The notes: a model not told the origin generated them from the letters alone. A stretch of DNA of 64,000 bases from an uncultured Actinobaculum sp. (GCA_938020505.1 CALIHR010000026.1:15138-79137), one strand, 5' to 3'. Shown: positions 38,633-53,393, counted from the stretch's first letter. Numbers and translations are program-made.

Positions 38633-39058
38633 ATGAGCAAGAAACGCTGTCCCCGTTTTTCGCGCATGGCTCTTTTGGACCTGCGCGCCTGGGTCGCCGC
38701 GATGTTTTTCGTGTTCGGCACGATGCTCGCCGTCTACGGGGCGTTCTTCGCCGACGGCGAGGATCTGGCCAAGGCCGCAGGAACCAACCTCGACCTGTGG
38801 ACCGGCGTAGGAATGATCGTCTTCGCCGCCGCCTTCGCGGTGTGGCTTCTCGCCCGCCCGCCTGAGTTCGACGTCGCCTCCGACGCGGAGGAAGCCGCCG
38901 ACGGCGTCGTCGCCGCGAACGGCGTTGACGGCCTTTTAGCGGAAGCGCCGGGGGCCGAGGGAAGCAAGGCCCAGACAGAAGACGGCGAGGCCCAGACAGA
39001 AGACGGCGAGGCCCAGACAGAAGACGGCGAGGCTCAGACGGAAGGCGCCAGGGGCTAA
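38633..39058 (+). CDS. Small two-TM membrane protein partnered with the SSS transporter. Its C-terminal acidic tail carries AQTEDGE repeats.
   Basis: Two hydrophobic helices (VAAMFFVFGTMLAVYGAFF and GVGMIVFAAAFAVWLLA), then three copies of EAQTEDG. Confidence 0.6.
   Translation: MSKKRCPRFSRMALLDLRAWVAAMFFVFGTMLAVYGAFFADGEDLAKAAGTNLDLWTGVGMIVFAAAFAVWLLARPPEFDVASDAEEAADGVVAANGVDGLLAEAPGAEGSKAQTEDGEAQTEDGEAQTEDGEAQTEGARG
38969..39031. repeat. Three perfect tandem 21-bp units (GCCCAGACAGAAGACGGCGAG) encoding (AQTEDGE)x3
   Basis: Read directly from the sequence. Confidence 0.7.
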
Positions 39059-39691
39059 CGGGCGCCAAAGACTAAGTCGCCAGGGGGTAAGGCCGCTTGG
39101 GAAACTCGCGCAGGGCGCCCGGCGGCGTCGGAAGCGCCTGAAAAAGCTCCGATCATAGAGCATGACATAGAAACTGCGTAAACGGCCGTCGTTGGGACAT
39201 GTGCGATCCTTGACGACCGTTTGTTTCCCTTCCCTGGCGTTTGCTTTGCTTTTCCGAACGGCGCCTCTGGCGTTTCCAAATGACGCCTCCGATTCAGCGC
39301 TCTGTTCCGACGGAGCGTCGAGCTTAGCAACGGCGCCGTCGTCCGTGGGAACGGCCGGGTGCATGCATGGGACCTTTGGACGAAAAGATTCTGTTCGAAT
39401 GCTGTTATTTTTTCTTCATGGTCTGGCGTGACGTGCCGGCCGATCTGGACACTCACAGAAGAATTGAGTCCATTTCTGCCGTTCACCGCCCCCAATGGCG
39501 GGAGACCATAAAACAAAAACCAATTTATGGACGCTCTCCGTCCAAATCACCTCACATTATCTTCCAGTTGAGCACAAGCGACGTTTCTTTCCCATTTTAC
39601 CGACTTGGGGAATTTTGCTTGTTTTTGCGGGGTTTTGGCGTGCCCTGCGCGCTTGCAAGGAAGCTCTCCTTCGATGTCGAAAGGGATATTC

Positions 39692-41083
39692 ATGCCTTCT
39701 ATCACCAGAGGTCTGCGGCGTGCCAGCGATCTCTCCATTTCCCAACGACGCTTCCTTTTGGTGCTCGTTTCCATTGGATCGTCGATCCTCTACACTCCGG
39801 CCTATCTGAAGAACGTCTTCTACGATCCGCTTAAGGAGGCGATCGGCACATCCAATGCGGGAGTGGGCGAGCTGCTCGGCTACTACGCCATCACCGCGAC
39901 GGTCTGCTACTTCCCGTCGGGCGTCGTCGCCGACAAGGTCAGGGTGCGCACGCTGGCGTGGGTCGGATTCACAACCACGGCGATGCTCACCTACCTCTAC
40001 GCCATGCTTCCCTCGTTCGCCGTTCTCAGACTCGTCTTCATCGGCATGGGCGTGACGACCATTCTCATCTGGTGGGGCATCCGGTTCAAGCTCGTCAGGC
40101 TCATCTCGGAGGAAGACGCCTATTCCCGCAACATCGGAATCTCCTACGGACTCTACGGCGCTGCGGGGCTTGTCGTCGGCTTCATCAGCATGAAGATCAT
40201 CGAGTGGTTTGAAGATTCGGCCGCAGTCGGGATTCAGTCTCTCCTCATCTTCCTCGGCACCCTCATTCTCATTCTCGGGATTCTCTCGTTCTTCTTCATT
40301 CCGAAGTTCGAGGGCGAGATCGATCCGACGAAGAAGTCCTTCGACATACGCCAGATTCGCGAGGCATTGAGGAACCCCGTCGTCTGGATTTCGGCCGCAT
40401 GCCTGTTCTGCGTGTACTTCTTCTACACGGGCGTCAACTACACGACCCCGTACCTCAAAAACGTGCTCCTGGCCTCCGCCTCCGTTACGAGCTTCGTTTC
40501 GATCGTCCGCACCTATGGCATCACCCTCGCCTCCGGGCCCGCCTTCGGCTTCCTCGCGAAAGCCACGGGCTCACCCTCGAAGGTCATCTTCGGCGGATCG
40601 ATAGTGTGCGCCGGCGGCCTGTTCGTGTTCACGATTCTTCCGGCCGAGCCGGGCATGGTTCTACTTGTCGCGGGGGTCACCATTGTGCTTGGATTCATCG
40701 CCAACGGCGTCTTCGGAATCGTTTCCTCCCAGTTGACCGAGGGGAAGGTCCCCATCCCGATCTTCGGCACGGCGGCCGGCATTCTCTCGGTCATCGGCTT
40801 CCTTCCGGACACCTTCTCTTCGACGTGGTTCGGAAAGATGATCGACGATCGGCCTAAGGACGCCTACGCCGAGATCTTCCTGATTCTCGCGGGCTTTGCC
40901 GTGGCGGCGGGCGTCCTCGCCCTCATACTCCTGTGGTACGTCAGGCGCACGGGGAAGGCGAAGGCGGCGCCGTCGGAGCCGACGCCGGTTCCGTCTTACG
41001 AGGAAGCCGCTGAGCCGGCGGCCGCGGCGAAGTCGCCTTTCGGTTCGAAGAAGGGCTCGGCTTGGAGCTCGCATGCCGAATAA
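39692..41083 (+). CDS. MFS transporter, first gene of the cai-like operon and a candidate substrate/product exchanger replacing the BCCT antiporter CaiT
   Basis: 12-TM MFS architecture. Start chosen at the ATG with GAAAGGGA ribosome-binding site. It is preceded by a 630-bp AT-richer leader. Confidence 0.8.
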   Translation: MPSITRGLRRASDLSISQRRFLLVLVSIGSSILYTPAYLKNVFYDPLKEAIGTSNAGVGELLGYYAITATVCYFPSGVVADKVRVRTLAWVGFTTTAMLTYLYAMLPSFAVLRLVFIGMGVTTILIWWGIRFKLVRLISEEDAYSRNIGISYGLYGAAGLVVGFISMKIIEWFEDSAAVGIQSLLIFLGTLILILGILSFFFIPKFEGEIDPTKKSFDIRQIREALRNPVVWISAACLFCVYFFYTGVNYTTPYLKNVLLASASVTSFVSIVRTYGITLASGPAFGFLAKATGSPSKVIFGGSIVCAGGLFVFTILPAEPGMVLLVAGVTIVLGFIANGVFGIVSSQLTEGKVPIPIFGTAAGILSVIGFLPDTFSSTWFGKMIDDRPKDAYAEIFLILAGFAVAAGVLALILLWYVRRTGKAKAAPSEPTPVPSYEEAAEPAAAAKSPFGSKKGSAWSSHAE

Positions 41084-42086
41084 ACTCAAGGTTCCCGCGA
41101 TGTGGAGCGAGCAGATGGGCGCCGTCGTCGCCAAGCAGAACGAGCTCGCTGCGGGCGTCTATTCCAGCGGTCAAACCTTCGAGCAGGCGCGCGAGGGGTA
41201 TCGCAAGGAACGGGTTTTCTGGAACGACGGCGGCCCCGTGCCGGCCTCGACGATCGAGAAGGACGTCGCCACCCGGCACGGGCGGGTGCGCGTGCGGATG
41301 CATCGCCCCGACGGCGCCGCCGTCCTCCCCGGGATCGTCTATGTCCACGGGGGCGGATGGGTGCTGGGAGACCTCGACACCCACGATCGAATAACCCGGA
41401 CTCTCGCCGAGAAGACCGGGGCGGCCGTCGTCGCCGTCGATTACAAGCTCTCGCCGGAGGCGCGCTTTCCGCGGGCGCTCGAAGAATGCGTCGACGTCGT
41501 CTCGGCGCTGAAGGCCGACGCCGACAAATGGGGGCTGGATCCCCGGAAACTCGCTTTGGCGGGCGACTCCGGGGGCGCTTCTCTCGCGCTCGGGACGTTC
41601 TTGCACCTGCGGGACGAGGAGAAGGCGGCCGAAGGCGTCGGCGCGCTCTTGCTGTTCTACGGAGCCTTCGGGCTGCGCGACTCGATGTCGATGCGGCTGT
41701 TCGGAGGCGAATGGGACGGTCTGAAGGAGGAGGATTTCGCCTGGTACAAGGACCTCTATCTGGCCGACGCCGCAGACGAGCGCAGCCCCTATTTCGACCT
41801 TCTGGCGAACGATCTGACAGGGCCGATGCCGCCGTGCTACATCGCCGCGGCCGGGCTCGATCCGCTGAGGGACGATTCGCGCACGCTCGCGACAATGCTT
41901 GCGAGCTCCGGGGGCGACGTGGAGAAAGAGGAGTTTCCCGACGTCATCCACGGCTTTTTGCACCATTCCAGAATGCTCGACGCCGCGAGGGACGCCCTCG
42001 CGCATGCGTCGGACTTCTTCCGCTCGCGCGTCGGGAAGGCCCCGGCGACAACTCAACAGACAATCGATATCACAACTGAGGAGTAG
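41073..42086 (+). CDS. Alpha/beta-hydrolase esterase of the hormone-sensitive-lipase family (family IV)
   Basis: Oxyanion-hole motif HGGGW and nucleophile motif GDSGG, plus DPLRDD/HGF catalytic Asp/His context. It overlaps the MFS stop by 11 nt and sits immediately upstream of caiA. Confidence 0.85.
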
Positions 42087-42088
42087 AA

Positions 42089-43222
42089 ATGGATTTCTCA
42101 TTCACCGAGGAACAGCAGCTGATCGTCGACGGCTTCGCCGACGTCATGAATTCGCGCTCATGGGAAAAGTACTTCCATGAGTGCGACGAGACGTCGACCT
42201 ACCCCGTCGAATGGGTGAAGGCTCTGTGCGACGTCGGATTCGACCGCATCCTCCTTCCCGAGGAGCATGACGGGCTCGGCCTCGACTGGGTCACGCTGGC
42301 CGCCGTGTACGAGGTGCTCGGCCGCCTCGGAGGCCCCACGTACATCCTCTACCAGCTGCCCGGCCTCGAAACCGTCGTACGCGAAGGCACCGACGAGCAG
42401 CGGGAGAAGGTCTTCTCCTATCTCGGCACGGGCGAGCAGGTCCTCAACTACGCGATGACCGAGCCGAGCGCGGGATCGTCCTGGAACGACATGCGCACGA
42501 CGTACACGCGGCGCGACGGCAAGGTCTATCTCAACGGGCACAAGACGTTCCAGACGTCCGCGATGCGGGTTCCCTACCTGGTGGTGATGGCCCGCAACGC
42601 CGACGACATGGACGTCTACACCGAATGGTTCGTCGACATGAGCAAGCCGGGCATTGCGAAGGAGCCCCTGCACAAGCTGGGGCTCAGAATGGATTCGTGC
42701 GCCGAGGTCTACTTCGACGACGTCGAACTCGAAGAGTCGGACCTCTTTGGCTCGGAAGGCAACGGCTTCATGCGCGGCGTCGCGGATTTCGACCTCGAGC
42801 GCCTCCTCGTGGCCCTGACGAACTACGGCCAGGCCTACTGCGCCTTCGAAGACGCCGCCAAATACGCCAACCAGCGCGTCCAGGGCGGCCAGGCGATCGC
42901 GCGCCGCCAGCTCATCCAGTTGAAGTTCGCCGACATGCAGGTGCGCCTGACGAATATGCGCAACATGCTTTTCGAGATCGCTTGGAAGCACGACGTCGGC
43001 AAGCTCGGCCGCGGCGACTGCTCGATGGCCAAGTACTACTGTTCGCATGCGGCCTTCGAGGTGGTCGATGACGCCCTGCAGGTCCTCGCCGGCGTCGGAA
43101 TCACCGGCGATCACCGAGTCCAGCGCTTCTACAGGGATTTGCGGGTGGACAGGGTCTCCGGGGGGACCGACGAGATGATGATCCTCACGGCCGGCCGCGC
43201 GGCGCTGAAGAACTACCGCTGA
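42089..43222 (+). CDS. caiA: Crotonobetainyl-CoA reductase/dehydrogenase CaiA (acyl-CoA dehydrogenase family)
   Basis: Near-colinear similarity to E. coli CaiA, recalled from memory. Shared strings include [45 protein letters not shown] and [29 protein letters not shown]. Confidence 0.9.
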
Positions 43223-43289
43223 GCGGAGCCGTGGCAGGCAGGCCCGGCAAAAGCAAACAGACCGAGCACAACAAACAGAAAGGTTAGAC

Positions 43290-44498
43290 ATGGAAACGAC
43301 AAAGCCGTCGTTCGGCCCGCTGGACGACGTCAGAGTCCTCTATTCGGCCGTTGAGATCGCCGCCCCCACCGCGGCCGAGATCATGTCCGAGTGGGGCGCC
43401 GACGTCACGTGGATCGAGAACATGTGGACGGGCGACTCGATGCGGGACACCACGTGGACGAAGGAGATGGAGAGGCGCAACCAGCGCTCGATCTCCATGA
43501 ACCCCTTCACCGACGAAGGCAAGGAGATCCTTCGCCGTTTGGTCAAGGAGACGGACATCTTCATCGAAGCCTCCAAGGGCCCGACGTTCGCCCGCAAGGG
43601 GATCACCGACGAGATGCTGTGGGAGGCCAATCCCTCCCTCGTCATCGTCCACGTTTCGGGGTTCGGCCAGTGGGGCGATCCTGCCGTGGTCAACGCCGCC
43701 GCGTACGATCTCACGGTCGCCGCATACGCCGGAATCATCGCGCAAAACGGCACGCCCGAGCAGCCGACGAACATCGCCCCCTATTCGGGCGACTATTTCA
43801 ACTCGCTCATGATCGTCTCCTCGGCGCTGGCCGCCCTGCACAAGGCCAAGGCGACGGGCAAGGGGGAGAGCATCGATCTGGCGATGTACGAGACGCTCCT
43901 GCGCGTCGGCACGTACTACATGATGGACTACCTCAACGCCGGCATAACCTACCCCCGTCCGGGCGCACGCCACCAGAATCTGTGCGCGATCGGCGAATAC
44001 GCCTGCAAAGACGGGTACATCGGCCTATGCGTCTACGGCGTCCCCCAGAACAAGTACCTTTTGGAGACCATCGGCCTGGGCGATCTGTGGGGGACTCCCG
44101 AGTACCCGGAGGACACGTCCGCGCTGTGGCTGGACGGGCCCAAGGCGGACCTCATCCAGCGCAAGCTCGAAGAGTACCTTGCGGGCCAGCTCAAGGCCGA
44201 CGTCCAAAAGGACTTCGTGGAGCATCGGATCGCGGCCCAAGCGGTCAACGAGTTCGAGGACATCGTGGCCGAGGACCACGTGGCCCGGCGCGAGTGCTTT
44301 ATCGAGTGGGAGAACGCCGAGGGCGCGCCCGTCAAGGGGCTCAACACGTTCCCGAAGTTCGCAAACAACCCCGGGGGCTTCTGGCGTCCGATGCCGCCTC
44401 TCGGCTACGACACCCGCGACGTGCTGACCCGGGCGGGGTTCACGCCGGAGGATCTGGCGCGGTTCGAGGAATCGGGCGCCGTCAGGTTTGGAGACTGA
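43290..44498 (+). CDS. caiB: L-carnitine CoA-transferase CaiB (family III CoA transferase)
   Basis: Similarity to E. coli CaiB, recalled from memory: FGPL...VEIA.P...EWGA.V.WIEN, DIFIEASKGPTFARKGITDEMLWEANP, GESIDLAMYETLLRVGTYYMMDY and KFANNPGGFWR. Confidence 0.9.
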   Translation: METTKPSFGPLDDVRVLYSAVEIAAPTAAEIMSEWGADVTWIENMWTGDSMRDTTWTKEMERRNQRSISMNPFTDEGKEILRRLVKETDIFIEASKGPTFARKGITDEMLWEANPSLVIVHVSGFGQWGDPAVVNAAAYDLTVAAYAGIIAQNGTPEQPTNIAPYSGDYFNSLMIVSSALAALHKAKATGKGESIDLAMYETLLRVGTYYMMDYLNAGITYPRPGARHQNLCAIGEYACKDGYIGLCVYGVPQNKYLLETIGLGDLWGTPEYPEDTSALWLDGPKADLIQRKLEEYLAGQLKADVQKDFVEHRIAAQAVNEFEDIVAEDHVARRECFIEWENAEGAPVKGLNTFPKFANNPGGFWRPMPPLGYDTRDVLTRAGFTPEDLARFEESGAVRFGD

Positions 44499-44543
44499 GG
44501 CGAGGGCGGGCGCTTCGGCGCCCGCCAAGCCCGCTAGGGTGAG

Positions 44544-46070
44544 ATGAATACGCGAGAATACCCCAATGTGCGCGACCTCTGGGAGGAGAGGGCGGCGCTT
44601 TGGGCCGGCCGGGAGTTCCTCGTCCACGAGGACCCGGACACGGCCAAGGTGGAGCGATACACGTACGCTCGCATGGACCGTGAAATGAAGGCCGCGGCCT
44701 CAATGTTCGCCTCCCTCGGCGTCGAGGCGGGCGACCGGGTCGGCCTGCACATGTGCAACCGGCCCGAGTTCGTCGAGTGCTTCCTCGCGCTGGCCGCGAT
44801 CGGCGCCGTCGTCGTGCCGATCGGCCCCGCAAGCACGGCGGCCGAATGCGCCCGCGTCGTCGAGGAGTGCGACATCCGCGTGCTCGTCAGCGAGTTTCCG
44901 GAAGACGCCGGGCGCCTGGAGGGCGTCGCCGTCGTCTGCCTCGACGACGGCGACTACGAGGCCATGAAAGCCGATCGGGCGGGGACGCCCCCTCCGAGGC
45001 CAGCGGTCGGGCCGGGCGACCTGTTGGAGGTCATGTACACCTCGGGCACGACGTCGCGCCCCAAGGGGGTGATGTTCACGCATGCCAACGCCGTGTTCTC
45101 GGGGAAGTACGTCGCATGGGAGCTGGCGCTCAGCGAGGCCGACAGGTACCTGACGACGATGTCCGTCACGCACGTCAACCTCCAGCTCTCGGCCCTCATG
45201 CCCGCCGTTTACGCCGGGGCCGCCCTCGTTCTCGTGCGCCGATACTCGGCCAGCAGGATGTGGTCGCAGGTGCGCAGGCACAGGGCGACGGTGATCCAGG
45301 CGATGGCCATGATCGTCAAAACGCTCATGGCCCAGCCTGTCGCTTCGGGCGAACGCGACCACAGCGTGAGAGCCGTCCACTACTTCCTTCCCCTTCCCAA
45401 AGGGATCAAGGAGGCATTCGAGGAACGCTACGGGGTGCGGCTGCTCAACAACTACGGCTCCTCCGAGACCCTCGTCGGCGTCGTCACCGACCTTCCCGAC
45501 GGGCGGTCCAAGTGGCCGTCCGTCGGTTTGGCCGGTCCGGGCTACGACGTCAGGATCGCCGGGGAAAACGGCTTGGCGCTGCCGCCCGGCGAGCGCGGGG
45601 AGATACAGGTGCGCGGGCAGGCCGGCGTCTCCCTCATGGCCGGATACTGGCGGGACGAGGAATCCACACGGGCGGCATTCACGGCAGACGGCTGGCTCCG
45701 CACGGGAGACTGCGGGTACGCCGACGCCGAGGGTTGGCTCTACTTCGTCGACCGCATGGGCGACATCGTCAAGCGTGCGGGCGAGAACATTTCGGCCTGC
45801 GAGGTGGAGGTCGCCATTCTCGAGCATCCCGACGTCGCCGACGTCGCCGTGCTGGGCATCTCCGATTCCATCCGGGACGAGGCCGTCAAAGCAGTGGTCG
45901 TCCCCAAGCCGGGGCGCCGGCCCACCGCCGAGGACGTGCGGGACTTTCTCTCGCTGCGCCTCTCGTTCTTCAAAATCCCCTCCGTCATCGAATTCCGCGA
46001 CGCGCTGCCGCGCGGAGAGTACGGAAAAGTCCTGAAAAACCAGCTCAAAACACAGAAATCAACAACATAG
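44544..46070 (+). CDS. caiC: Crotonobetaine/carnitine-CoA ligase CaiC (ANL adenylating enzyme)
   Basis: AMP-binding motif YTSGTTSRPKGV. RYSASRMWSQV matches the E. coli CaiC KYSARAFWGQV, and GISDSIRDEAVKAVVV matches GIKDSIRDEAIKAFVV. Confidence 0.85.
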   Translation: MNTREYPNVRDLWEERAALWAGREFLVHEDPDTAKVERYTYARMDREMKAAASMFASLGVEAGDRVGLHMCNRPEFVECFLALAAIGAVVVPIGPASTAAECARVVEECDIRVLVSEFPEDAGRLEGVAVVCLDDGDYEAMKADRAGTPPPRPAVGPGDLLEVMYTSGTTSRPKGVMFTHANAVFSGKYVAWELALSEADRYLTTMSVTHVNLQLSALMPAVYAGAALVLVRRYSASRMWSQVRRHRATVIQAMAMIVKTLMAQPVASGERDHSVRAVHYFLPLPKGIKEAFEERYGVRLLNNYGSSETLVGVVTDLPDGRSKWPSVGLAGPGYDVRIAGENGLALPPGERGEIQVRGQAGVSLMAGYWRDEESTRAAFTADGWLRTGDCGYADAEGWLYFVDRMGDIVKRAGENISACEVEVAILEHPDVADVAVLGISDSIRDEAVKAVVVPKPGRRPTAEDVRDFLSLRLSFFKIPSVIEFRDALPRGEYGKVLKNQLKTQKSTT

Positions 46071-46082
46071 AAAGGCAATGCC

Positions 46083-46958
46083 ATGGCCATCAACACCGAC
46101 ATGGTCGGCCAGACCTTCGGCCCGTTCGTCCGCGACTACACCTTCCGCGACCTCGAGTTGTTCGCACTCGGCTGCGGCGCTGGAATCGACGGCAAGAACG
46201 GCCTGGAGTACCTCAACGAACACGACGAGCGCGATCCGAAGCTCAAGGTTCTTCCCATGTTCGGCGCGATGCTCATCGTCGATTCCGAGGTGACCCGGAC
46301 CATCGACTACGGATACAACTATGCGGGCTCTCTGCACTGGGGCTTCGACATACGCTTCCACCGGCCCATCGTGAAGATGGCCGACCGCCTGGAGACGAAG
46401 GTCAAGCTCGAAGGCCTCTACGACCGCGGCGAGGGCAGGGGGCTGCTCGCCCAGCACATCGGCGACACCTGCGATTCCGAGGGAAATCTGCTGTTCACCA
46501 ACGAATCTTGGGACTGCCTCATCTACGACGGCGGCTGGGGCGGCCCCAAACCGCCGAAGGACATCGTCGAAATGCCCGATCGGCCCGCCGACGTCGAGAC
46601 AACCGAGACGATCCCCGAGAATCAGGCGCTCATCTACCGCCTCTCCGGTGACTACCACCCCCAGCACATCGACTGGGAGTATGCCGCTGAAAACGGCGAG
46701 CCGCGCCCGATTCTCCACGCCATCAGCTACGCGGGGGTCGTCATGCGCCATGCCATCGACGCCTTCGTGCCAGGCGAACCCGAGCGCATCACGCGTTTCA
46801 AGACCCGCATCACCTCGCCGGTCCATCCAGGATCGACGCTTACGACGCGCTTGTGGAAGGTCGCCGACGGCGAACTCCGCTTCGCCCTCGTCGACGCCGA
46901 CGTCGATGAGACCGGCGCCAAGCCCCATCTGAACTGGGGAATCATCGAGTACAAGTAA
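46083..46958 (+). CDS. MaoC-like double hot-dog (R-specific) enoyl-CoA hydratase/dehydratase. It sits where the crotonase-fold CaiD lies in enterobacterial cai operons.
   Basis: Two hot-dog halves; the C-terminal half has the hydratase-2-type motif region (YRLSGDYHPQHIDWEYAAENG). Confidence 0.8.
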   Translation: MAINTDMVGQTFGPFVRDYTFRDLELFALGCGAGIDGKNGLEYLNEHDERDPKLKVLPMFGAMLIVDSEVTRTIDYGYNYAGSLHWGFDIRFHRPIVKMADRLETKVKLEGLYDRGEGRGLLAQHIGDTCDSEGNLLFTNESWDCLIYDGGWGGPKPPKDIVEMPDRPADVETTETIPENQALIYRLSGDYHPQHIDWEYAAENGEPRPILHAISYAGVVMRHAIDAFVPGEPERITRFKTRITSPVHPGSTLTTRLWKVADGELRFALVDADVDETGAKPHLNWGIIEYK

Positions 46959-47088
46959 AGCTCGGGCACAGGCGAGGCCGATAGGCTCGCGGGGCCGGTT
47001 CTCGCGAGCCTGTCGGCCGGCCCGCCGACAGCATGGCCTCAAAACGAGAGCACGGTCCAAGATCTAGAATCGAGAAAGGGAAGCGGCT

Positions 47089-47721
47089 GTGAGAATCGAT
47101 TCCGTCGTCGTCGGAAGCTATCGCGCCAACTGCTACGTTCTGCGCGAAGGGGCGTCGATGATCGTCGTCGACCCGGGAGACGAACCCGCCGAAGTGCTCG
47201 GCCTCATCGGCTCCGCAGGCGAGGCCGGCGCGGCGGACTACGTGCAGATCGTCGCCTCACACTGCCACTGCGACCACATCGGCGCGGTCAACGAGGTGGC
47301 CGAGGCTTGCGCCGCCTCCTTCGCCGTCGGGCGCGAGGACGGGCACGCCGTCGCCGACCCCCGTCTTTCCGGCTTCGACGAAGAGGGGCGCGACTATCGG
47401 GTCGAAAAAGTCGATCGGCTGCTGGACGACGGCGACGAGATCGCCCTCGGCCCCTACCGCTTCCGGGTCATATCGACGCCCGGCCACACTCCGGGGTCCG
47501 TCTGCCTCTACTGCGCCGAACTCAGTCTCATGTTCACCGGCGACACCCTCTTCGCCAACGGTGTCGGGCGCACGGACTTCATCCGCGGCGACGCCGAGGC
47601 GATGCGCCAAACCTGTTCCAAGCTCGGCGCGTATCCCGACTCGACGGTCCTTCTTCCCGGCCACGGCCCCTCCACGCGCCTGGGCGTCGAAAAGGCGCGC
47701 AACCCTCTGCTGCGCGCGTAA
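47089..47721 (+). CDS. MBL-fold metallo-hydrolase (glyoxalase-II-like), last gene of the cai-like operon
   Basis: HCHCDHIG metal-binding motif (HxHxDH), TPGHTPGS and a downstream His. Confidence 0.85.
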   Translation: MRIDSVVVGSYRANCYVLREGASMIVVDPGDEPAEVLGLIGSAGEAGAADYVQIVASHCHCDHIGAVNEVAEACAASFAVGREDGHAVADPRLSGFDEEGRDYRVEKVDRLLDDGDEIALGPYRFRVISTPGHTPGSVCLYCAELSLMFTGDTLFANGVGRTDFIRGDAEAMRQTCSKLGAYPDSTVLLPGHGPSTRLGVEKARNPLLRA

Positions 47722-47775
47722 ATCCGGCCGGGGCGCCTCTTCCCTCCAAGGGCAGAGCCTTTCAGCCTCCGCGCG

Positions 47776-48411
47776 TCAGGAGACCGAGCGCAGAGCCCGC
47801 AGGGGAGAGGCGCCGAGCTGGTCGTTGACTAGGTTTTCCACGTATTCGGGGATTTCGCCGAGGAAACATTCGATGTTCTCCGGCATGAGCGAGAAGGCGC
47901 GCATGAGCACCGAGCCTTCGATGGCGTCCAGAAGGCGTGTGACGGACGTCCCCTCCGGCAGGAGGCCGGCCGATTTGAACTCCCACAGGCGCGCTCGGAT
48001 CGCGGCGATCGGGTCTCGATACGTGTGGATGTAAGCGGCGCGGACCACGGGGTTGACTTCGCATGCCATCTCGACGAAAAGGCGCCTGACAGCCTGCGCA
48101 TGCTCGCCGAGGTACAGCCGCATCCTGTATTCGGCCTCGTTGGACAGCACCTCGTGCGCACTGTCGCCGACCGGCCCGGGCGCGGCCACGACGGTCCGGA
48201 AGGCGTCGATGAACAGTTCCTCGATACTGGCCCATCTCGTGTACATCGACGACTTGCCGACGCCGGCGGCCTTGGCCACCTTCGTCATGTTGAAACCGTG
48301 CCATCCTGCATCGCCATACAGATCCAGGGCGGCTTTGAGTATCTTGCCGTCGGCTTCGACGTTGCGAGGCCGCCCTACGGGGCCGCGCTGGACTGCATGA
48401 ATGTCGACCAC
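47776..48411 (-). CDS. TetR family transcriptional regulator, convergent with the cai operon and divergent from fixABCX
   Basis: GTG start with AAGGAGGAG ribosome-binding site. HTH GFNMTKVAKAAGVGKSSMYTRWAS. Confidence 0.8.
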   Translation of the reverse strand: MVDIHAVQRGPVGRPRNVEADGKILKAALDLYGDAGWHGFNMTKVAKAAGVGKSSMYTRWASIEELFIDAFRTVVAAPGPVGDSAHEVLSNEAEYRMRLYLGEHAQAVRRLFVEMACEVNPVVRAAYIHTYRDPIAAIRARLWEFKSAGLLPEGTSVTRLLDAIEGSVLMRAFSLMPENIECFLGEIPEYVENLVNDQLGASPLRALRSVS

Positions 48412-48624
48412 GAAATCTCCTCCTTGTCCGTTCTGGCTAAGGCCCACGGCTGCGTTGGCGAGGTCAATTATACGCAATGAACCTGGGAACTTGGAGAGAC
48501 GGCTCACAGGCATATGGGCGTGAGAGTCTTTGGTCCTTATTGCAGGAGAAGCAACAGGGTAACATTGACTTCAATCGAACAATCACTGTGTCCACAAAGG
48601 TGCGGAGATTGGGAAAGGCCTTTT

Positions 48625-48647
48625 TTCGGACGTAGAAAGTCCGAAAT
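48625..48647. promoter_or_regulatory. Inverted repeat TTTCGGAC-N7-GTCCGAAA in the TetR/fixA intergenic region. It is a candidate operator.
   Basis: Read directly from the sequence. Confidence 0.35.
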
Positions 48648-48714
48648 CGGCTTCCGGGGTTGCCCGCGAGGCGTCGCAACGCGCGATGTGGGAAACTGGT
48701 GGGGCCGAAGATAC

Positions 48715-48729
48715 GTTTCATCGAAACGC
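48715..48729. promoter_or_regulatory. Palindrome CGTTTC-ATC-GAAACG about 60 bp upstream of the fixA ATG. It is a candidate TetR operator.
   Basis: Read directly from the sequence. Confidence 0.4.
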
Positions 48730-48788
48730 AATCGCTTTCCACAGGGCAGTGGTGCAGCCAGGCCCTCAACAGACAGAGAGAGGCTTCA

Positions 48789-49541
48789 ATGACCGTAGTT
48801 GTCGCTTACAAGTACGCGGCCAATCCACAGGATGCGTCGGTCGGCGCCGACGGCGTCGTCGATTGGTCGCGGGCCAAGTCCGCCGTTTCCGAATACGATC
48901 CCGTGGCAATCCAGCTGGGCCGCAACCTCGCGGACGCCGAGGGCGTTGAGCTCGTCGGCGTCACCGTCGGCAAGAGCGACGTGGCCGGATCGATGGCCAA
49001 GAAGAACGCCATGTCGAAGGGATTCGACAGGGGAGTCGTCGTCGCCGACGACGCGACCGCAGGATGGAACGCCACGAAGACCGCTTCTGCGCTGGCGGAG
49101 CTCGTCAAATCCGTCGAAGGCGCGGACATTCTGCTCGCCGGCGATTCCTCGATCGACGAGGGCACGAAGATCGTGCCGGCACTCGTCGCCGGATTCCTCG
49201 GATGGCCGGCCTTCCAGGGCGTCTCAGCGGTCGTCAAGACCGCCGACGGGTATGAAATCACGCAGAACGTCCCCGGCGGGACCCGCACGATCGCCGTCTC
49301 AGGCCCCGTCGTCGTCTCCGCTTCCTCGGACGCCGTCGCCCCCAAGGTCCCCTCCATGAAGGACATCCTCGCCGCCGGCAAGAAGCCCGTGGAGAAGGCC
49401 GAGGTTCCTTCCGTCGACGTCGAAATCACCGTCGTCGGCCGCTCGAAGCCCGAGCGCAAGGCTCGCAAGAACAAGATTTTCGAGGGCGCGGACGCCCCCG
49501 CCCAGCTCGTTGCCGCCCTGCGTGCCGACGGCGTGCTCTGA
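48789..49541 (+). CDS. fixA: Electron transfer flavoprotein beta subunit FixA
   Basis: Typical ETF-beta N-terminus (VVAYKYAANPQD). GAGAGAGG ribosome-binding site. Confidence 0.9.
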   Translation: MTVVVAYKYAANPQDASVGADGVVDWSRAKSAVSEYDPVAIQLGRNLADAEGVELVGVTVGKSDVAGSMAKKNAMSKGFDRGVVVADDATAGWNATKTASALAELVKSVEGADILLAGDSSIDEGTKIVPALVAGFLGWPAFQGVSAVVKTADGYEITQNVPGGTRTIAVSGPVVVSASSDAVAPKVPSMKDILAAGKKPVEKAEVPSVDVEITVVGRSKPERKARKNKIFEGADAPAQLVAALRADGVL

Positions 49542-49564
49542 GAGTTGAAAGGACACAGACAACA

Positions 49565-50434
49565 ATGGCAAACACCTGGATCATCGCGGTTGACCCGCAG
49601 ATTGCCTCTCTCGTCGAGCAGGGGCGGGCGATCGGCGGCTCGGTCACGGCAGTGACCGTCGGCGGCACGCCCGTCGCGGGAGTCGACAAGGTCATCGACG
49701 TGGCGCTTCCCGAGGGCGTTCCCGCCGAGGCCGCTGCGCCCGCGGTCGCAGCGGCGGTCGCAGCCGAGGCCGGCGACGTCGTCCTCGCCGCCAACAAGCC
49801 CGCCGAGCGGGTTCTCGCCGGCGCCGTCGCGGCCAAACTGAACGCCGCGTTCCTCCCCGGCCTCAAGTCGGCCAAGGCCGGCGCGGCCGAGCTCTCGCGT
49901 TACGGCGGCCTTTCCTTTGAAAGCGTCACCTTTGACTCGCCCGTCGTCGCGGTTCTCGACGGCGGCGCGGAGGCCGAGGGCCAGCCTGTGCCCGCCGAGT
50001 CTGCCGAAGGCTCGGTCTACGAGGCCAAGGTCACCGGCCAGGACAAGACGGAGGTCGTTGCGGTCAACCTGGGGGCGGCCAAGCGCGTCGTCGCAGCGGG
50101 ACGCGGTTTCAAAGCGAAGGAAGACCTCAAACTGGCCGAGGAGCTCGCAGCCGCAATCGGCGCCGAGCTCGCGTGCTCGCGCCCCCTCGCCGAAGGCGCG
50201 GATTGGATGGCCGTCGACCGCTACATCGGCGTCTCCGGCCAGGCCGTCTCGCCCGAGCTCTACATCGCCGTCGGCATCTCCGGTCAGATTCAGCACACGG
50301 TCGGCATGAGCGATTCGAAGGTCGTCGTGGCAGTCAACAGCGATCCGAAGGCGCCGATGTTCGCGGGCGCGGATTACGGAATCGTCGGCGATCTTTACGA
50401 GGTTCTTCCGGCGCTGACGGAGGCTGCTAAGTAG
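49565..50434 (+). CDS. fixB: Electron transfer flavoprotein alpha subunit FixB (short form)
   Basis: The C-terminal FAD-binding region (YIAVGISGQIQHTVGMSDSKVVVAVNSDPKAPMFAGADYGIVGDLYEVLPAL) is the canonical ETF-alpha signature. Confidence 0.9.
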   Translation: MANTWIIAVDPQIASLVEQGRAIGGSVTAVTVGGTPVAGVDKVIDVALPEGVPAEAAAPAVAAAVAAEAGDVVLAANKPAERVLAGAVAAKLNAAFLPGLKSAKAGAAELSRYGGLSFESVTFDSPVVAVLDGGAEAEGQPVPAESAEGSVYEAKVTGQDKTEVVAVNLGAAKRVVAAGRGFKAKEDLKLAEELAAAIGAELACSRPLAEGADWMAVDRYIGVSGQAVSPELYIAVGISGQIQHTVGMSDSKVVVAVNSDPKAPMFAGADYGIVGDLYEVLPALTEAAK

Positions 50435-50439
50435 GAAAC

Positions 50440-51738
50440 ATGGCCGAAGAGAACTACGATTTCGACGTCATCGTCGTCGGCGGGGGAGTGGCGGGTTCAG
50501 TCTGCGCCTGCCTGCTGGCGAAGAAAGGGCGCGAAGTCCTCCTCGTCGAGAGGGGAATGGAGCCGGGGTCGAAGAACCTGTCGGGCGGCGTCTTCTACTG
50601 TCGCGTCATGCAGGAGGTGTTTCCGAACTTCATCGAGGAGGCGCCGATCGAACGGCGCATCACCCGCAACTGCTTGAGCTTCCTCAACCCGACGAACTTC
50701 GTGAACGTCGACTACTGGGACTCGCGGCTGGCCGAGCCGGTCAACGCGGTCACGGTTCTGCGGGCGAAGTTCGATCCGTGGCTCGCGGAGCAGGCGGAGG
50801 AAGCGGGCGTGACGGTCATGCCCGGCGTCAAGGTCGACGGGATCATCCGCGAGGGCGGACGGTTCGTCGGCATCCGCGCGGGCGAGGACGAGCTGAGGGC
50901 CCGCGTCGTCGTCGCGGCCGACGGCGTCAACTCCTTCATTTCCCAGGACGCGGGGATCCGCGGCAAGGAGCCGTTGGAGAACCTGGCGGTGGGTGTGAAG
51001 TCCGTGATTTGCCTCGGCGAGGAGGAGGTCAAGAAGCGCTTCAACCTCGTCGGCGACGAAGGAGCGGCCTACGCCGTCGTCGGAGACTGCACCGAGGGCG
51101 TGGCCGGCGGCGGGTTCATGTACACGAACAAGGAGTCCGTCTCCATCGGCATTGTCGCGCGGCTGGACGATCTGACGAAGAAAGGCAAGTCCTCTTCGGA
51201 TCTGCATGACCATTTCCTCTCGCACCCGGCGATCGCGCCGTTCCTGGAGGGCGGCGAACTTCTCGAGTACGGCTGCCACCTTGTGGCCGAGGGCGGAGAG
51301 AAGATGCAGCACGATCTGGTGCGCAACGGACTCGTCGTGATCGGCGACGCCGCCGGCTTCACCCTCAACACCGGCTTCACGGTTCGGGGGATGGACTTGG
51401 CGGCCGGTTCCGCCGTCGCCGCCGCCACGGCCGTCGATCACGCGCTGGAAACCGGGGACTGCAGCCGCGTGGGGTTGGAACGATACATCGCCGAGTATAA
51501 GAAGTCTTTCGTAGGCAAGGACATGGCGACGTACGCCAAGGCGCCCGACTTCCTCGAGAACGACGAAATGTACGGGGATCTCGGATTGATGCTGGCGGAC
51601 GTGCTGTACGGCGTGTACAACCTCGATCTGACGCCCCGCAAGCACATCCTTCCCACCGCGTTGTCCGCTTTCAAGGCATCCGGTTTGAAGATTCGACGGA
51701 TGGCCAAAATTGGCTTCCAGGCAGTGAGGTCTCTGTGA
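50440..51738 (+). CDS. fixC: FAD-dependent oxidoreductase FixC (ETF-quinone oxidoreductase-like)
   Basis: N-terminal GGGVAGSVCACLLA dinucleotide-binding motif and FixC-type length (432 aa). Confidence 0.9.
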   Translation: MAEENYDFDVIVVGGGVAGSVCACLLAKKGREVLLVERGMEPGSKNLSGGVFYCRVMQEVFPNFIEEAPIERRITRNCLSFLNPTNFVNVDYWDSRLAEPVNAVTVLRAKFDPWLAEQAEEAGVTVMPGVKVDGIIREGGRFVGIRAGEDELRARVVVAADGVNSFISQDAGIRGKEPLENLAVGVKSVICLGEEEVKKRFNLVGDEGAAYAVVGDCTEGVAGGGFMYTNKESVSIGIVARLDDLTKKGKSSSDLHDHFLSHPAIAPFLEGGELLEYGCHLVAEGGEKMQHDLVRNGLVVIGDAAGFTLNTGFTVRGMDLAAGSAVAAATAVDHALETGDCSRVGLERYIAEYKKSFVGKDMATYAKAPDFLENDEMYGDLGLMLADVLYGVYNLDLTPRKHILPTALSAFKASGLKIRRMAKIGFQAVRSL

Positions 51739-52034
51739 TGTCTGATTTTTTCGAAGGCAGCGTTCCTGCCCGCCTGGGCAAGAACGTCTATGAAGTCGAC
51801 GAAGGCAATTCGCATATCGAGGTCAACCAGGAGATAGCGAAGGCTACCGGGGCCGGCAAAGTGCTGGTCAAGGTGTGCCCGGCCCACGTCTACTCCGAGG
51901 AACCCGACGGCACGATCTCCGTAGAGTTCGCCGCATGCCTCGAATGCGGAACGTGCCGTGCCGTTGCGGCTCCGGGACTGCTCAAGTGGCACTATCCCGA
52001 GGGTTCGATGGGCATCATGTTCCGTGAGGGTTGA
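51735..52034 (+). CDS. fixX: Ferredoxin-like protein FixX
   Basis: 99 aa with Cys motif CPAHVYSE...CLECGTC. It overlaps the fixC stop by 4 nt. Confidence 0.85.
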   Translation: MMSDFFEGSVPARLGKNVYEVDEGNSHIEVNQEIAKATGAGKVLVKVCPAHVYSEEPDGTISVEFAACLECGTCRAVAAPGLLKWHYPEGSMGIMFREG

Positions 52035-52056
52035 CCAAAAGGGCGGGTGCTGACGC

Positions 52057-52091
52057 AAACGGGCGGGCGGAGCGATCCGCCCGCCCGTTTT
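52057..52091. terminator. Strong intrinsic terminator after fixX, also positioned to terminate the convergent RCC1 gene
   Basis: aaacgggcgggcgg-agcgatc-cgcccgcccgtttt. Confidence 0.7.
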
Positions 52092-52244
52092 AACCGTTGA
52101 AAAAGTGCGAATCGACGCTCTCGGGTGCGGGATCGGCTGGGGATGCGAGTCCTCGTTGCGGGGAGGCTGTCGGCGTTCCCGCGTGTCGGGGATCGTTTTG
52201 TCCTCCGGTTTTGCCGCCTTTCAGCTTTTAGGCCTTGCTGCCCC

Positions 52245-53393
52245 TCACTCTTGTGCTATTTGGATGGTTTGTTTGTCGGTGTTGAGGCAGTAGGCGGCTC
52301 CGGTGGCGGTGACCCAGCAGTCGATGCCGTGGGGGTGGCCGGAGATGCTGACGACGCGTCCGCGGGCGTCCAGGGGCGTGAGCGCAGCCGGGACGGTGCC
52401 GGTGGCGGGGTTGTAGGGGCCGGGCTCGACGTAGACGAGCCGGCCGGCGGCGGTCAGGGCGATCTTTCCCGACATGTCCTTGATCGCCGTGCTTGTGGCC
52501 AGGCGGGCCGGGCGCCGGGCGTAGGCGCCGTCGGGGGCGCGGATGCCTCCCCAGCAGTAGACCGAGGCGTCGTCTAGGGCCGCGCAGGATGTGGCGGTGC
52601 GCCGGTCGAAGAGTTTGGCCGCCGGGCGCGGCAGGGGGACTTTGACCACCGAGTGGGGGGCGTGGCGTCCGATGTCGGCCGCCACGCCGAGTTCGCCGCG
52701 GCGGTTGGTTCCCCAGCAGTAGACCGATCCGGATGCGCCCCGGGCGCAGCTTGACCCTTCGGAGGCGGTGACCTGGTCGACTGTCTCGGGCAAGGCCACC
52801 GGGCGCGAGTCTTCCGGGTAGACGTCGCCGGCAGGCGAACTGGTGTTGCCGGTGCTCTGGGCGTAGGAATTGCCCGCCCAACACCGCACCTGCCCCTCGA
52901 CAACCGCACACAAATGATCCCCCGCACCGGCAACGTCTGTCACTGCCTCCGGTGAGAAAATATAGGACAAGTGATTGTAATCCGCGTCTCTGGGGAGCTG
53001 TCGTCTGTCGTTGAGGCCGCCGCACTTGAGAGCGTCCACCATGTCGGTTGTGCAGATGTTGTAATTCGCGTAAAAAACAGCTTTAACCTTTTTGTTTAAA
53101 GGCTCTAAAGGAACAATGTTTCCAAGGCTGCGGTGATTGCCCTTTTTAAGATTGGGGAAAAAGCAGTAGACCTCTTGGCCTTTTGTTTTTAGACAAAGGT
53201 GATGTCTGCCTACCGACACCGATGCAAAGTCACTCCGATACGTGTTGAGAGGGGCCAGCTCGGGCGAGGCGCTCCTCGTTGAAGACGCCACAATGCACAC
53301 CACGAGGGCAAACGCTCGAAAGAAACGCTTGACGATCAGAAACTTACGGCTGGGCTGTTGGCTCGCAGATCTACTCGCTTTGACAGTCTTCAT
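52245..53393 (-). CDS. Secreted RCC1-repeat (seven-bladed beta-propeller-like) protein
   Basis: N-terminal signal-like segment KRFFRAFALVVCIVASS. Recurrent RCC1-blade signatures occur (HHLCLKTKGQEVYCF, DHLCAVVEGQVRCWAGNSYAQ, SCARGASGSVYCWGTNRRGELG, SCAALDDASVYCWGG, IDCWVTATGAAYC). The 5' third of the gene is AT-rich and the 3' two-thirds GC-rich. Confidence 0.7.
   Translation of the reverse strand: MKTVKASRSASQQPSRKFLIVKRFFRAFALVVCIVASSTRSASPELAPLNTYRSDFASVSVGRHHLCLKTKGQEVYCFFPNLKKGNHRSLGNIVPLEPLNKKVKAVFYANYNICTTDMVDALKCGGLNDRRQLPRDADYNHLSYIFSPEAVTDVAGAGDHLCAVVEGQVRCWAGNSYAQSTGNTSSPAGDVYPEDSRPVALPETVDQVTASEGSSCARGASGSVYCWGTNRRGELGVAADIGRHAPHSVVKVPLPRPAAKLFDRRTATSCAALDDASVYCWGGIRAPDGAYARRPARLATSTAIKDMSGKIALTAAGRLVYVEPGPYNPATGTVPAALTPLDARGRVVSISGHPHGIDCWVTATGAAYCLNTDKQTIQIAQE

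Follow-up and report, generated by a model that had tools for sequence, protein, structure and literature searches.

A predicted carnitine reduction locus of the cai-fix type with alternative hydratase and transporter components in an oral member of the Actinomycetaceae

A 64,000-nucleotide stretch of DNA from an uncultured Actinobaculum sp. (hereafter the window) carries, at positions 39692-52034, a set of genes recalling the anaerobic carnitine respiration system of enterobacteria: caiA, caiB and caiC, the electron-transfer flavoprotein (ETF) genes fixABCX and a TetR-family regulator gene. The accessory parts are of other kinds: a major facilitator superfamily (MFS) transporter and a MaoC-type hydratase are found in lieu of the transporter CaiT and the crotonase CaiD, and the genes for an esterase and a metallo-beta-lactamase (MBL)-fold hydrolase are added. 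This raises the question of whether such a locus in a high-GC Gram-positive bacterium reduces carnitine at all, and if so, which protein takes the place of the missing dehydratase. We consider it likely that the locus encodes a Gram-positive pathway from carnitine to gamma-butyrobetaine, which functions as an electron sink and is furnished with an acylcarnitine front end.

In the proposed pathway, all steps of which we infer except for the family assignments themselves, the MFS transporter would import carnitine and/or O-acylcarnitines, and the translationally coupled Aes-type esterase would strip the acyl group to leave L-carnitine. CaiC would use ATP and CoA to form a betainyl-CoA that primes the cycle, and CaiB would then transfer the CoA from gamma-butyrobetainyl-CoA to the incoming carnitine or crotonobetaine. 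The MaoC protein would dehydrate carnitinyl-CoA to crotonobetainyl-CoA, the step catalyzed by CaiD in E. coli, and CaiA would reduce the latter with electrons arriving via the ETF FixAB, itself fed by FixC and FixX, most simply from menaquinol. Finally, gamma-butyrobetaine would be released, and repression by the TetR protein would presumably be relieved by an intermediate of the pathway.

Core enzymes and their electron supply

The window proteins were compared by BLASTP with the cai/fix region of E. coli K-12, and their family membership was judged by the equivalog cut-offs of NCBIfam and by Pfam. CaiA obtains 709 bits on the equivalog model NF002885, well over its cut-off of 540, and 438 bits on the YdiO-like acyl-CoA dehydrogenase (ACAD) model NF008997, which is under the cut-off of that model (537); it aligns with E. 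coli CaiA over its full length at 63% identity (380 columns). Likewise, CaiB obtains 672 bits on NF002914 (cut-off 413) and 140 bits at most on the other family-III CoA-transferase families. Its top matches in the Protein Data Bank are the E. coli CaiB structures 1XK6, 1XA3 and 1XVU (E = 3e-109), and it shares 44% identity with E. coli CaiB over nearly the full length. As both proteins lie above curated thresholds and score far lower on the neighbouring families, their assignment to the Cai clade in a first-pass annotation of the window, rather than to unrelated ACADs or CoA-transferases, is upheld. The same assignment holds for CaiC only in part: the family it matches best is indeed the crotonobetaine/carnitine-CoA ligase family NF005947, with 539 bits against 362 for the next family, but the cut-off of 651 is not reached. 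Given its position and best match, and with an alignment to E. coli CaiC that is colinear over residues 8-502 at 40% identity, the window protein is best treated as CaiC-like. The order caiA-caiB-caiC is that of E. coli, and the colinear, near full-length BLASTP alignments agree with what had been annotated.

The phenotypic context for these assignments comes from Propionibacterium freudenreichii, for which a cluster comprising genes for an MFS transporter, an alpha/beta-hydrolase, caiABC, an "enoyl-CoA hydratase", a second MFS transporter and fixABCX has been described (Roder et al., Scoary2; bioRxiv 10.1101/2023.04.19.537353 / PMC11007987). Across 44 yogurts, the MFS and hydrolase genes of this cluster were associated with the depletion of octanoyl- and decanoylcarnitine, and likewise with raised levels of carnitine and of a compound putatively identified as gamma-butyrobetaine; a strain in which fixABC had been split off accumulated carnitine (PMC11007987).

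All four Fix domain types are present in the window, in the order fixA-fixB-fixC-fixX, with near full-length, colinear BLASTP alignments to the E. coli proteins at 33% (FixA), 39% (FixB), 41% (FixC) and 42% (FixX) identity. The best NCBIfam matches of FixA are PRK12342 and PRK03359 (FixA), with 115 bits on NF002888/PRK03359 (cut-off 219), and those of FixB are PRK11916 and PRK03363, with 154 bits on NF002889/PRK03363 (cut-off 549). FixC obtains 405 bits on NF007450 and 352 bits on NF007542/PRK10157 (FixC; cut-off 610), both under the respective cut-offs, and FixX 76 bits on NF011993/PRK15449 (cut-off 166). FixA, FixB and FixC score slightly higher on the Ydi-type models PRK12342, PRK11916 and PRK10015 than on the Fix models. 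Judged by these scores, the window proteins are members of the wider Fix/Ydi ETF family and not equivalogs of the E. coli Fix proteins.

These scores could be taken to mean that the locus handles another acyl or betaine substrate, for example in an anaerobic enoyl-CoA reduction of the YdiO/YdiQRST kind or in beta-oxidation, with the esterase and the MaoC protein acting on fatty-acyl substrates. The sub-threshold score of CaiC would fit such a function, as would the presence of MaoC and Aes-type enzymes, which classically belong to fatty-acyl metabolism. We nevertheless give this possibility very little credence: CaiA and CaiB are separated from the YdiO-like and other CoA-transferase families by wide margins (709 versus 438 bits and 672 versus at most 140 bits), the orthologous cluster of P. 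freudenreichii is associated specifically with carnitine compounds, and in other phyla the same MaoC family is found beside CaiT of the betaine/choline/carnitine transporter (BCCT) family and CaiE.

As to the direction of electron flow, the closest solved structure to FixC is the FixC chain of the EtfABCX complex (7KOE_C, E = 2e-65), followed by ETF:ubiquinone oxidoreductase. The closest solved homologues of FixA are classical, non-bifurcating ETF beta subunits, with no bifurcating EtfB among its structure matches at E = 1e-10, and FixB matches structures of both the bifurcating and the non-bifurcating kind. Since FixC thus resembles its counterpart in EtfABCX, and FixA a non-bifurcating ETF beta subunit, we favour a simple chain from menaquinol through FixCX and FixAB to CaiA. 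The very same resemblances, to classical ETF beta subunits and to ETF:quinone oxidoreductases, would also suit an oxidative pathway, in which gamma-butyrobetaine or crotonobetaine is activated, CaiA acts as a dehydrogenase, the Fix proteins pass the electrons as ETF and ETF:quinone oxidoreductase to menaquinone (and from there, for example, to nitrate reductase), and the MaoC protein hydrates the product to carnitinyl-CoA. The name given to the CaiA family in NCBIfam, "crotonobetainyl-CoA dehydrogenase", and the presence of a respiratory nitrate reductase in the same window are in keeping with it. Nonetheless, we give it little credence, as neither a carnitine dehydrogenase nor a downstream catabolic gene is found in the locus or the window, and linkage of nar and cai genes is seen in 0 of 79 related loci. 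Moreover, the full cluster of P. freudenreichii goes with a rise in gamma-butyrobetaine and the loss of fixABC with an accumulation of carnitine (PMC11007987), and the Cai/Fix system of E. coli is reductive according to Walt and Kahn, as their work is summarized in a paper citing it.

The wider distribution of these genes was surveyed by a CaiB scan with one genome per species, which gave 79 loci, and four more were added from look-ups of MaoC and esterase homologues. Gene content was profiled by phmmer and tblastn, and the counts refer to those 52 caiABC loci whose flanks extend for at least 4 kb in both directions; as the window CaiB served as the query in collecting the loci, relatives of the window are over-represented in the proportions. 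Of the 52 loci, 47 include fix genes. In many loci from Cellulomonas, Propionibacteriaceae and Bacillota they are interleaved with the cai genes in the order caiA-caiB-fixA-fixB-caiC-MaoC-fixC-fixX (survey loci L028, L030, L034, L045, L051, L054, L064 and L071 from the first two groups; L049, L055 and L061, for example, from Bacillota). Because the ETF subunits of these interleaved loci are only 27-35% identical to the window FixA, the cai pathway has been paired with at least two ETF lineages.

A separate observation concerns the C-terminus of CaiA, where a stretch, [11 protein letters not shown](T/S)DEM, is common to the window and E. coli proteins; the part encoded at window positions 43150-43222 reads ...RVSGG(T/S)DEM... 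in both. In typical acyl-CoA dehydrogenases, a YEG motif with the catalytic glutamate stands at this C-terminal place. Because it is occupied here by RVSGG(T/S)DEM, the Cai clade may put its catalytic base elsewhere.

The hydratase in the place of CaiD

The exchange of CaiD for a MaoC protein, which the first-pass annotation had put forward, is supported by a clear split across the 52 loci: MaoC occurs alone in 44 (with no CaiD within at least 4 kb), CaiD alone in six, both in one and neither in one. Clusters of the MaoC type are seen in Actinomycetota (Actinomycetaceae, Cellulomonadaceae, Propionibacteriaceae and metagenome-assembled genomes of Bifidobacteriaceae), Bacillota (such as Schinkia, Neobacillus, Sporomusa and Desulfitobacterium), Desulfovibrionaceae (Desulfovibrio), Enterobacillus, Endozoicomonas and some Campylobacterota, and those with CaiD alone in Eggerthellaceae and Campylobacter. 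Thus, among the sampled loci, MaoC is the commoner solution outside the Enterobacteriaceae, and a non-orthologous displacement of CaiD appears to be the most economical reading of the pattern.

The MaoC protein displays the two-domain architecture of the hydratase 2 of multifunctional enzyme 2 (MFE-2), with PF22622 followed by PF01575, and matches no NCBIfam family; its closest structures are 3KHP ("MaoC family protein") and the human MFE-2 hydratase 2, 1S9C. It is 80-92% identical across actinomycete genera, being as conserved as CaiA and CaiB or more so, and belongs to a distinct family with 57-95% identity among 120 listed cluster representatives from several phyla, all of which bear generic names only. 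Where the neighbourhoods of distant homologues were inspected, all four lay in cai clusters, including those of Enterobacillus, Desulfovibrio and Shewanella.

Hydratase-2 enzymes share the motif [YF]-x(1,2)-[LVIG]-[STGC]-G-D-x-N-P-[LIV]-H, which contains the catalytic Asp and His. The corresponding segment of the window protein, YRLSGDYHPQHID, retains both of these residues and shows two replacements, N to H and L to Q (GDYHPQH), that are invariant throughout the cai-linked family. Further residues invariant in this family and absent from both 3KHP and 1S9C are D75, S83, F88, E141, W143, D144, D149, D160, E175, H192, Q194, Y200 and R238. Among the family-specific positions are several acidic or aromatic ones in the N-terminal half, which accommodates the acyl tail in hydratase 2; by inference only, they would fit a pocket remodelled for the trimethylammonium group.

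Several points weigh against the pathway as proposed, one of them being stereochemistry. Hydratase-2 and MaoC enzymes act on (3R)-hydroxyacyl-CoA and crotonases such as CaiD on the (3S) form. L-carnitine, which is R by the Cahn-Ingold-Prelog (CIP) rules, spatially equals the (S)/L-3-hydroxyacyl configuration, as the label flips because CH2N+ outranks CH2COO-. A typical MaoC enzyme would be expected to handle D-carnitinyl-CoA; the substitution of MaoC for CaiD is hence stereochemically non-trivial, a point missing from the first-pass annotation. The joint presence of CaiD and MaoC in one cluster of Shewanella fidelis (order caiT-A-B-C-caiD-MaoC-caiE-esterase) means that the two are not strictly interchangeable, and a crotonase could be encoded elsewhere in the window organism, the hydratase search having covered 64 kb of its genome. 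Beyond the hydratase, CaiC and all four Fix proteins fall under their equivalog cut-offs, and the direction in which FixABCX passes electrons is a predicted one. A second, Sugar_tr-type MFS transporter, encoded in most actinomycete clusters, is missing from the window, leaving the export of the product without an assigned gene. Lastly, the phenotypes come from associations in another genus, where gamma-butyrobetaine was identified only putatively (PMC11007987).

The points on the hydratase could be accommodated by a carnitine pathway in which the MaoC protein is not the L-carnitinyl-CoA dehydratase. It would then act on the D-isomer, as in a racemase-like pairing with a crotonase, or have some other job, and either a crotonase encoded elsewhere would perform the CaiD step or imported crotonobetaine would be reduced with no need of a hydratase. 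The family-specific changes in GDYHPQH are also compatible with such an arrangement. However, the abundance of loci with MaoC and no CaiD, and the reciprocal six with CaiD and no MaoC, are hard to reconcile with it, as is the conservation of MaoC at or above the level of CaiA and CaiB. In addition, D-carnitine is no natural bulk substrate, and P. freudenreichii strains with the MaoC-type cluster appear to convert the L-carnitine of milk to gamma-butyrobetaine. We therefore regard this alternative as unlikely, though well short of negligible. As for the positive claim, namely that the cai-linked MaoC protein is a hot-dog-fold L-carnitinyl-CoA dehydratase, an independently arisen analogue of CaiD that would have to bind or attack its substrate unlike every characterised hydratase-2 enzyme, we hold the balance to be even.

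The Shewanella fidelis cluster (L087, 3305-12697) deserves mention in its own right: CaiD and MaoC are encoded side by side, along with CaiE and an Abhydrolase_3 esterase. Such a pairing of an S-type with an R-type hydratase points to an activity on carnitine resembling that of an epimerase or racemase.

Acylcarnitine front end, regulation and genomic setting

The window-type MFS transporter is found in 36 of the 52 loci and the BCCT transporter CaiT in 15, with no co-occurrence, which supports the earlier proposal that the former stands in for the latter. An esterase accompanies the MFS transporter in 33 of its 36 loci. The window esterase obtains 394 bits on the acetyl esterase model NF007547, just over the cut-off of 389, and its translation displays the HGGG oxyanion motif (VHGGGW) and the GxSxG nucleophile motif (GDSGG). 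It shares 57% identity with the alpha/beta-hydrolase that Scoary2 singled out in P. freudenreichii, and the MFS transporter is 60% identical to that associated with acylcarnitine depletion in the same organism. By analogy with the Scoary2 associations of these orthologues, the esterase is probably an O-acylcarnitine hydrolase feeding the pathway, and the MFS protein is proposed to be an importer of carnitine or acylcarnitine. The first-pass annotation had listed the esterase and the MBL-fold hydrolase simply as additions; both are indeed present, but in light of the P. freudenreichii associations the esterase is probably part of the supply line and not a loose extra. The MBL gene is shared by many Actinomycetaceae loci and the P. 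freudenreichii cluster, and most other cai clusters lack it; we treat its product as accessory, and our guess is a thioester hydrolase freeing CoA.

Esterases recur beside cai genes in unrelated lineages, being of the Abhydrolase_3 type in Shewanella and Campylobacter and a GDSL lipase in Desulfovibrio. In Desulfovibrio aminophilus (L089, 1432-16772), a cai-MaoC-fix cluster starts with a divergent TetR-like regulator gene and ends with that for the GDSL lipase; this looks like an independent recruitment of a TetR protein and an esterase to the pathway, and the locus contains no GGAC-N7-GTCC site of the kind described below.

In most actinomycete cai clusters, the gene for the Sugar_tr-type MFS transporter (about 450-470 aa) separates that for MaoC from the MBL or TetR gene, as in L011, L012, L014, L018, L033, L058 and L090, which represent Schaalia, Trueperella, Arcanobacterium, an unclassified member of the Actinomycetaceae (L012), Sanguibacter and P. 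freudenreichii. Peptidiphaga and its closest relatives (L007, L008 and L025) lack it altogether, and in the window this place is occupied by a spacer of 130 bp (46959-47088).

With regard to regulation, a palindrome with the core GGAC-N7-GTCC and T-rich and A-rich flanks (consensus TTTnnGGAC-N7-GTCCnAAA) occurs once in the 630-bp leader of the MFS gene and once between tetR and fixA. A TetR gene is present at the same position in 19 Actinomycetaceae loci, and in 18 of these the 600 bp preceding the MFS gene contain one or two exact copies of GGAC-N7-GTCC, as against only 3 of 26 loci that have the MFS gene and no detected TetR. Its density upstream of the MFS gene is 2.29/kb, compared with 0.0155/kb elsewhere in the same loci, an approximately 150-fold enrichment, and the spacer sequences differ among genomes. 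Since the count within the window is not significant in itself (3 found versus 2.0 expected), the support for the palindrome comes entirely from its conserved position across genomes. The core is all that the two intergenic regions of the window share, as no 14-nt word is common to them when up to 2 mismatches are allowed. The site upstream of fixA occupies the same position only in the lineage of Peptidiphaga and "Actinobaculum oral taxon 183" (L025, L007 and L008) and not in other genera. Together, these observations constitute good footprint-style evidence for a candidate TetR operator. It would tie the cai and fix transcription units together in the window organism, and the TetR protein probably represses both through it. 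A scan of positions 38900-52600 for sigma-70 promoters and intrinsic terminators was uninformative, with no promoters and nine terminator-like sites versus 10.9 expected. An Rfam scan of the whole window detected no RNA family and hence no riboswitch in the MFS leader.

Open reading frames (ORFs) filtered by the G+C content at third codon positions (GC3) leave 12 genes within 39692-52034 (Table 1). Together with the family assignments, these calls agree with the coordinates and order first annotated, including fixABCX downstream of the cai genes and the TetR gene (PF00440) between the two units. There is an 11-nt overlap between the MFS and esterase genes and a 4-nt overlap between fixC and fixX, with gaps of just 2 nt between the esterase gene and caiA and 12 nt between caiC and the MaoC gene; this tight spacing indicates two operons. 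The tetR gene is convergent to the cai unit and divergent from fixA.

Table 1. Genes and candidate operator sites of the cai-fix locus, in window coordinates
Feature	Position	Strand	Remarks
Candidate TetR operator 1	39529-39543		palindrome GGACGCTCTCCGTCC in TTTATGGAC-N7-GTCCAAATC; 163 bp upstream of the MFS start codon
MFS_1 transporter	39692-41083	+	463 aa; PF07690
Aes/hormone-sensitive-lipase-family esterase	41073-42086	+	337 aa; NF007547, PF07859
CaiA, crotonobetainyl-CoA reductase	42089-43222	+	377 aa; NF002885
CaiB, gamma-butyrobetainyl-CoA:carnitine CoA-transferase	43290-44498	+	402 aa; NF002914, PF02515
CaiC-like betaine:CoA ligase	44544-46070	+	508 aa; best match NF005947
Double-hot-dog MaoC/hydratase-2 protein	46083-46958	+	291 aa; PF22622 + PF01575
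MBL-fold hydrolase, GloB-like	47089-47721	+	210 aa; PF00753; weak TIGR03413 match
TetR-family regulator	47776-48411 (ORF open to 48513)	-	211 aa; PF00440
Candidate TetR operator 2	48628-48642		GGACGTAGAAAGTCC in the 23-nt palindrome TTTCGGAC-N7-GTCCGAAA; tetR-fixA intergenic, 161 bp upstream of fixA
FixA, ETF beta-type subunit	48789-49541	+	250 aa; PF01012
FixB, ETF alpha-type subunit	49565-50434	+	289 aa; PF00766
FixC, ETF:quinone-oxidoreductase-like flavoprotein	50440-51738	+	432 aa; NF007450, NF007542
FixX, ferredoxin-like	51735-52034	+	99 aa; NF011993

The GC3 of the locus genes (0.72-0.89) is similar to that of the rest of the window, in keeping with the earlier view that base composition and codon bias are those of the host. 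A recent transfer from enterobacteria is excluded by this host-like GC3, by the 33-63% identity to the E. coli proteins and by the constant flanks. The latter are the same in six independent metagenome contigs and in Peptidiphaga gingivicola BA112, and the exact CaiB protein recurs with the same flanks on many metagenome contigs. The DNA of the locus is about 93-94% identical to that of P. gingivicola BA112, an oral member of the Actinomycetaceae, with CaiB being 99% identical.

The locus had also been described as close to a nitrate-respiration block and as part of an alternative-electron-acceptor neighbourhood. Respiratory nitrate genes are present in the window, but at about 16-20 kb from the cai locus the closeness holds only loosely, and the notion of a shared neighbourhood gains no support from conservation, none of the 79 loci encoding NarG or NarK within 10 kb of caiB. 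The nar genes lie at about 10-19 kb and those for the molybdenum cofactor and modABC extend to 23.7 kb, with guaB and genes for an NAD synthase, a deacetylase, an ABC transporter, an oxidoreductase and a sodium:solute symporter (SSS) family transporter intervening before the cai locus. In view of these housekeeping genes and the 79 loci, a functional linkage to nitrate respiration was rejected. The block itself is on the minus strand, with narK (17761-19068), narG (14023-17748) and narH (about 14029 to about 12490). Next come a MoaB-like gene, modA and a single ORF (21702-23744) in which the ModB permease and the ModC ATPase are fused into one protein of 680 aa.

Two further features flank the locus. 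Upstream, a 21-bp tandem repeat of 3.7 copies (38967-39044, within the small ORF 38633-39058) encodes a GEAQTED repeat, which forms the C-terminus of a small membrane-like protein whose gene lies just downstream of that for the SSS transporter; the length of this protein varies among metagenome contigs (134, 141 or 148 aa), and the copy number is hence strain-variable. Just downstream of fixX, the GC content drops to 0.55-0.58 between positions 52000 and 56000. Two minus-strand ORFs in this stretch encode proteins with signal-peptide-like N-termini, namely an RCC1/WD40_RLD-repeat protein (52245-53393) and one of 687 aa that matches no NCBIfam family (53515-55578). The stretch may be an acquired island.

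Significance and comparison with known systems

Bacterial gamma-butyrobetaine derived from L-carnitine is an intermediate on the anaerobic route to trimethylamine and trimethylamine N-oxide (PMC8364193), and at least one published catalogue of producers was built on the enterobacterial caiTABCDE set (PMC11857547). An alternative parts list, with an MFS transporter for CaiT, MaoC for CaiD, no CaiE and an added esterase, is widespread and includes human-associated Actinomycetaceae; screens based on caiTABCDE may well miss such clusters. If the MaoC protein is indeed the dehydratase, then screens for the full set miss these gamma-butyrobetaine producers, among them oral Actinomycetaceae with the potential to use acylcarnitines of the host. 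The locus also offers biochemical targets in the form of a candidate medium-chain acylcarnitine esterase, a hydratase family with a stereochemical puzzle and a TetR protein with a candidate operator. In the literature covered, which left out most subscription journals, we found nothing on a MaoC-type carnitinyl-CoA dehydratase, and nothing beyond the Scoary2 paper on acylcarnitine esterases of the Aes-type family or on carnitine reduction in Actinomyces or Peptidiphaga.

The window itself mostly confirms a cluster type that has already been described. By its sequence and layout, it is an orthologous member of the type published for P. freudenreichii, and its architecture is not new; what is new here are the patterns of replacement between MaoC and CaiD and between the MFS transporter and CaiT over 52 loci, and the palindrome linked to TetR. 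The P. freudenreichii locus (L090) is ordered MFS_1, Abhydrolase_3, ACAD, CoA_transf_3, AMP-binding, MaoC, Sugar_tr MFS, Lactamase_B, ETF, ETF and FixC. In both organisms the MFS and hydrolase genes are directly upstream of caiABC, the MaoC gene comes after caiC, the fix genes are downstream, and CaiT, CaiD and CaiE are lacking. Apart from the MFS transporter and the esterase, for which identities were given above, the proteins are 78% (CaiA), 71% (CaiB), 51% (CaiC), 85% (MaoC), 51% (MBL), 67% (FixA), 55% (FixB) and 71% (FixC) identical. The window differs in lacking the Sugar_tr-type MFS gene between the MaoC and MBL genes and in having the divergent tetR and the conserved palindrome, the TetR gene being absent from the P. 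freudenreichii locus. The hosts also differ, one being an oral member of the Actinomycetaceae and the other a dairy propionibacterium.

With the caiTABCDE/fixABCX system of E. coli, which anaerobically reduces L-carnitine or crotonobetaine to gamma-butyrobetaine, the window shares the caiABC order, with colinear proteins of 63%, 44% and 40% identity, and all four Fix proteins at 33-42% identity. No homologues of E. coli CaiT, CaiD, CaiE or CaiF were detected in the 64-kb window by tblastn, which for CaiE accords with the absence noted on first annotation. Within the same 64 kb, the roles in question fall to an MFS transporter in place of the BCCT protein CaiT, MaoC in place of the crotonase CaiD and a TetR protein in place of CaiF, with no CaiE and with the esterase and the MBL hydrolase added. 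Furthermore, fix follows cai on the same strand, whereas the two are divergent in E. coli.

With hydratase 2, as represented by MFE-2 (1S9C) and 3KHP, the window MaoC protein has in common the two-domain hot-dog architecture and the Asp and His of the motif, and it differs in belonging to a separate cai-linked family with invariant residues of its own. Unlike that of a classical R-hydratase, its predicted substrate is a quaternary-ammonium acyl-CoA, the natural isomer of which has the "wrong" configuration. Finally, the role proposed for the window esterase, that of freeing carnitine from acylcarnitines ahead of a carnitine pathway, recalls HocS of Pseudomonas aeruginosa, a hydrolase of short-chain O-acylcarnitines (Meadows and Wargo 2013, as cited in PMC10694575). 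The two are likened by role only: HocS is a short-chain enzyme, whereas the window protein is of the Aes/hormone-sensitive-lipase family and its P. freudenreichii orthologue is associated with C8 and C10 acylcarnitines.

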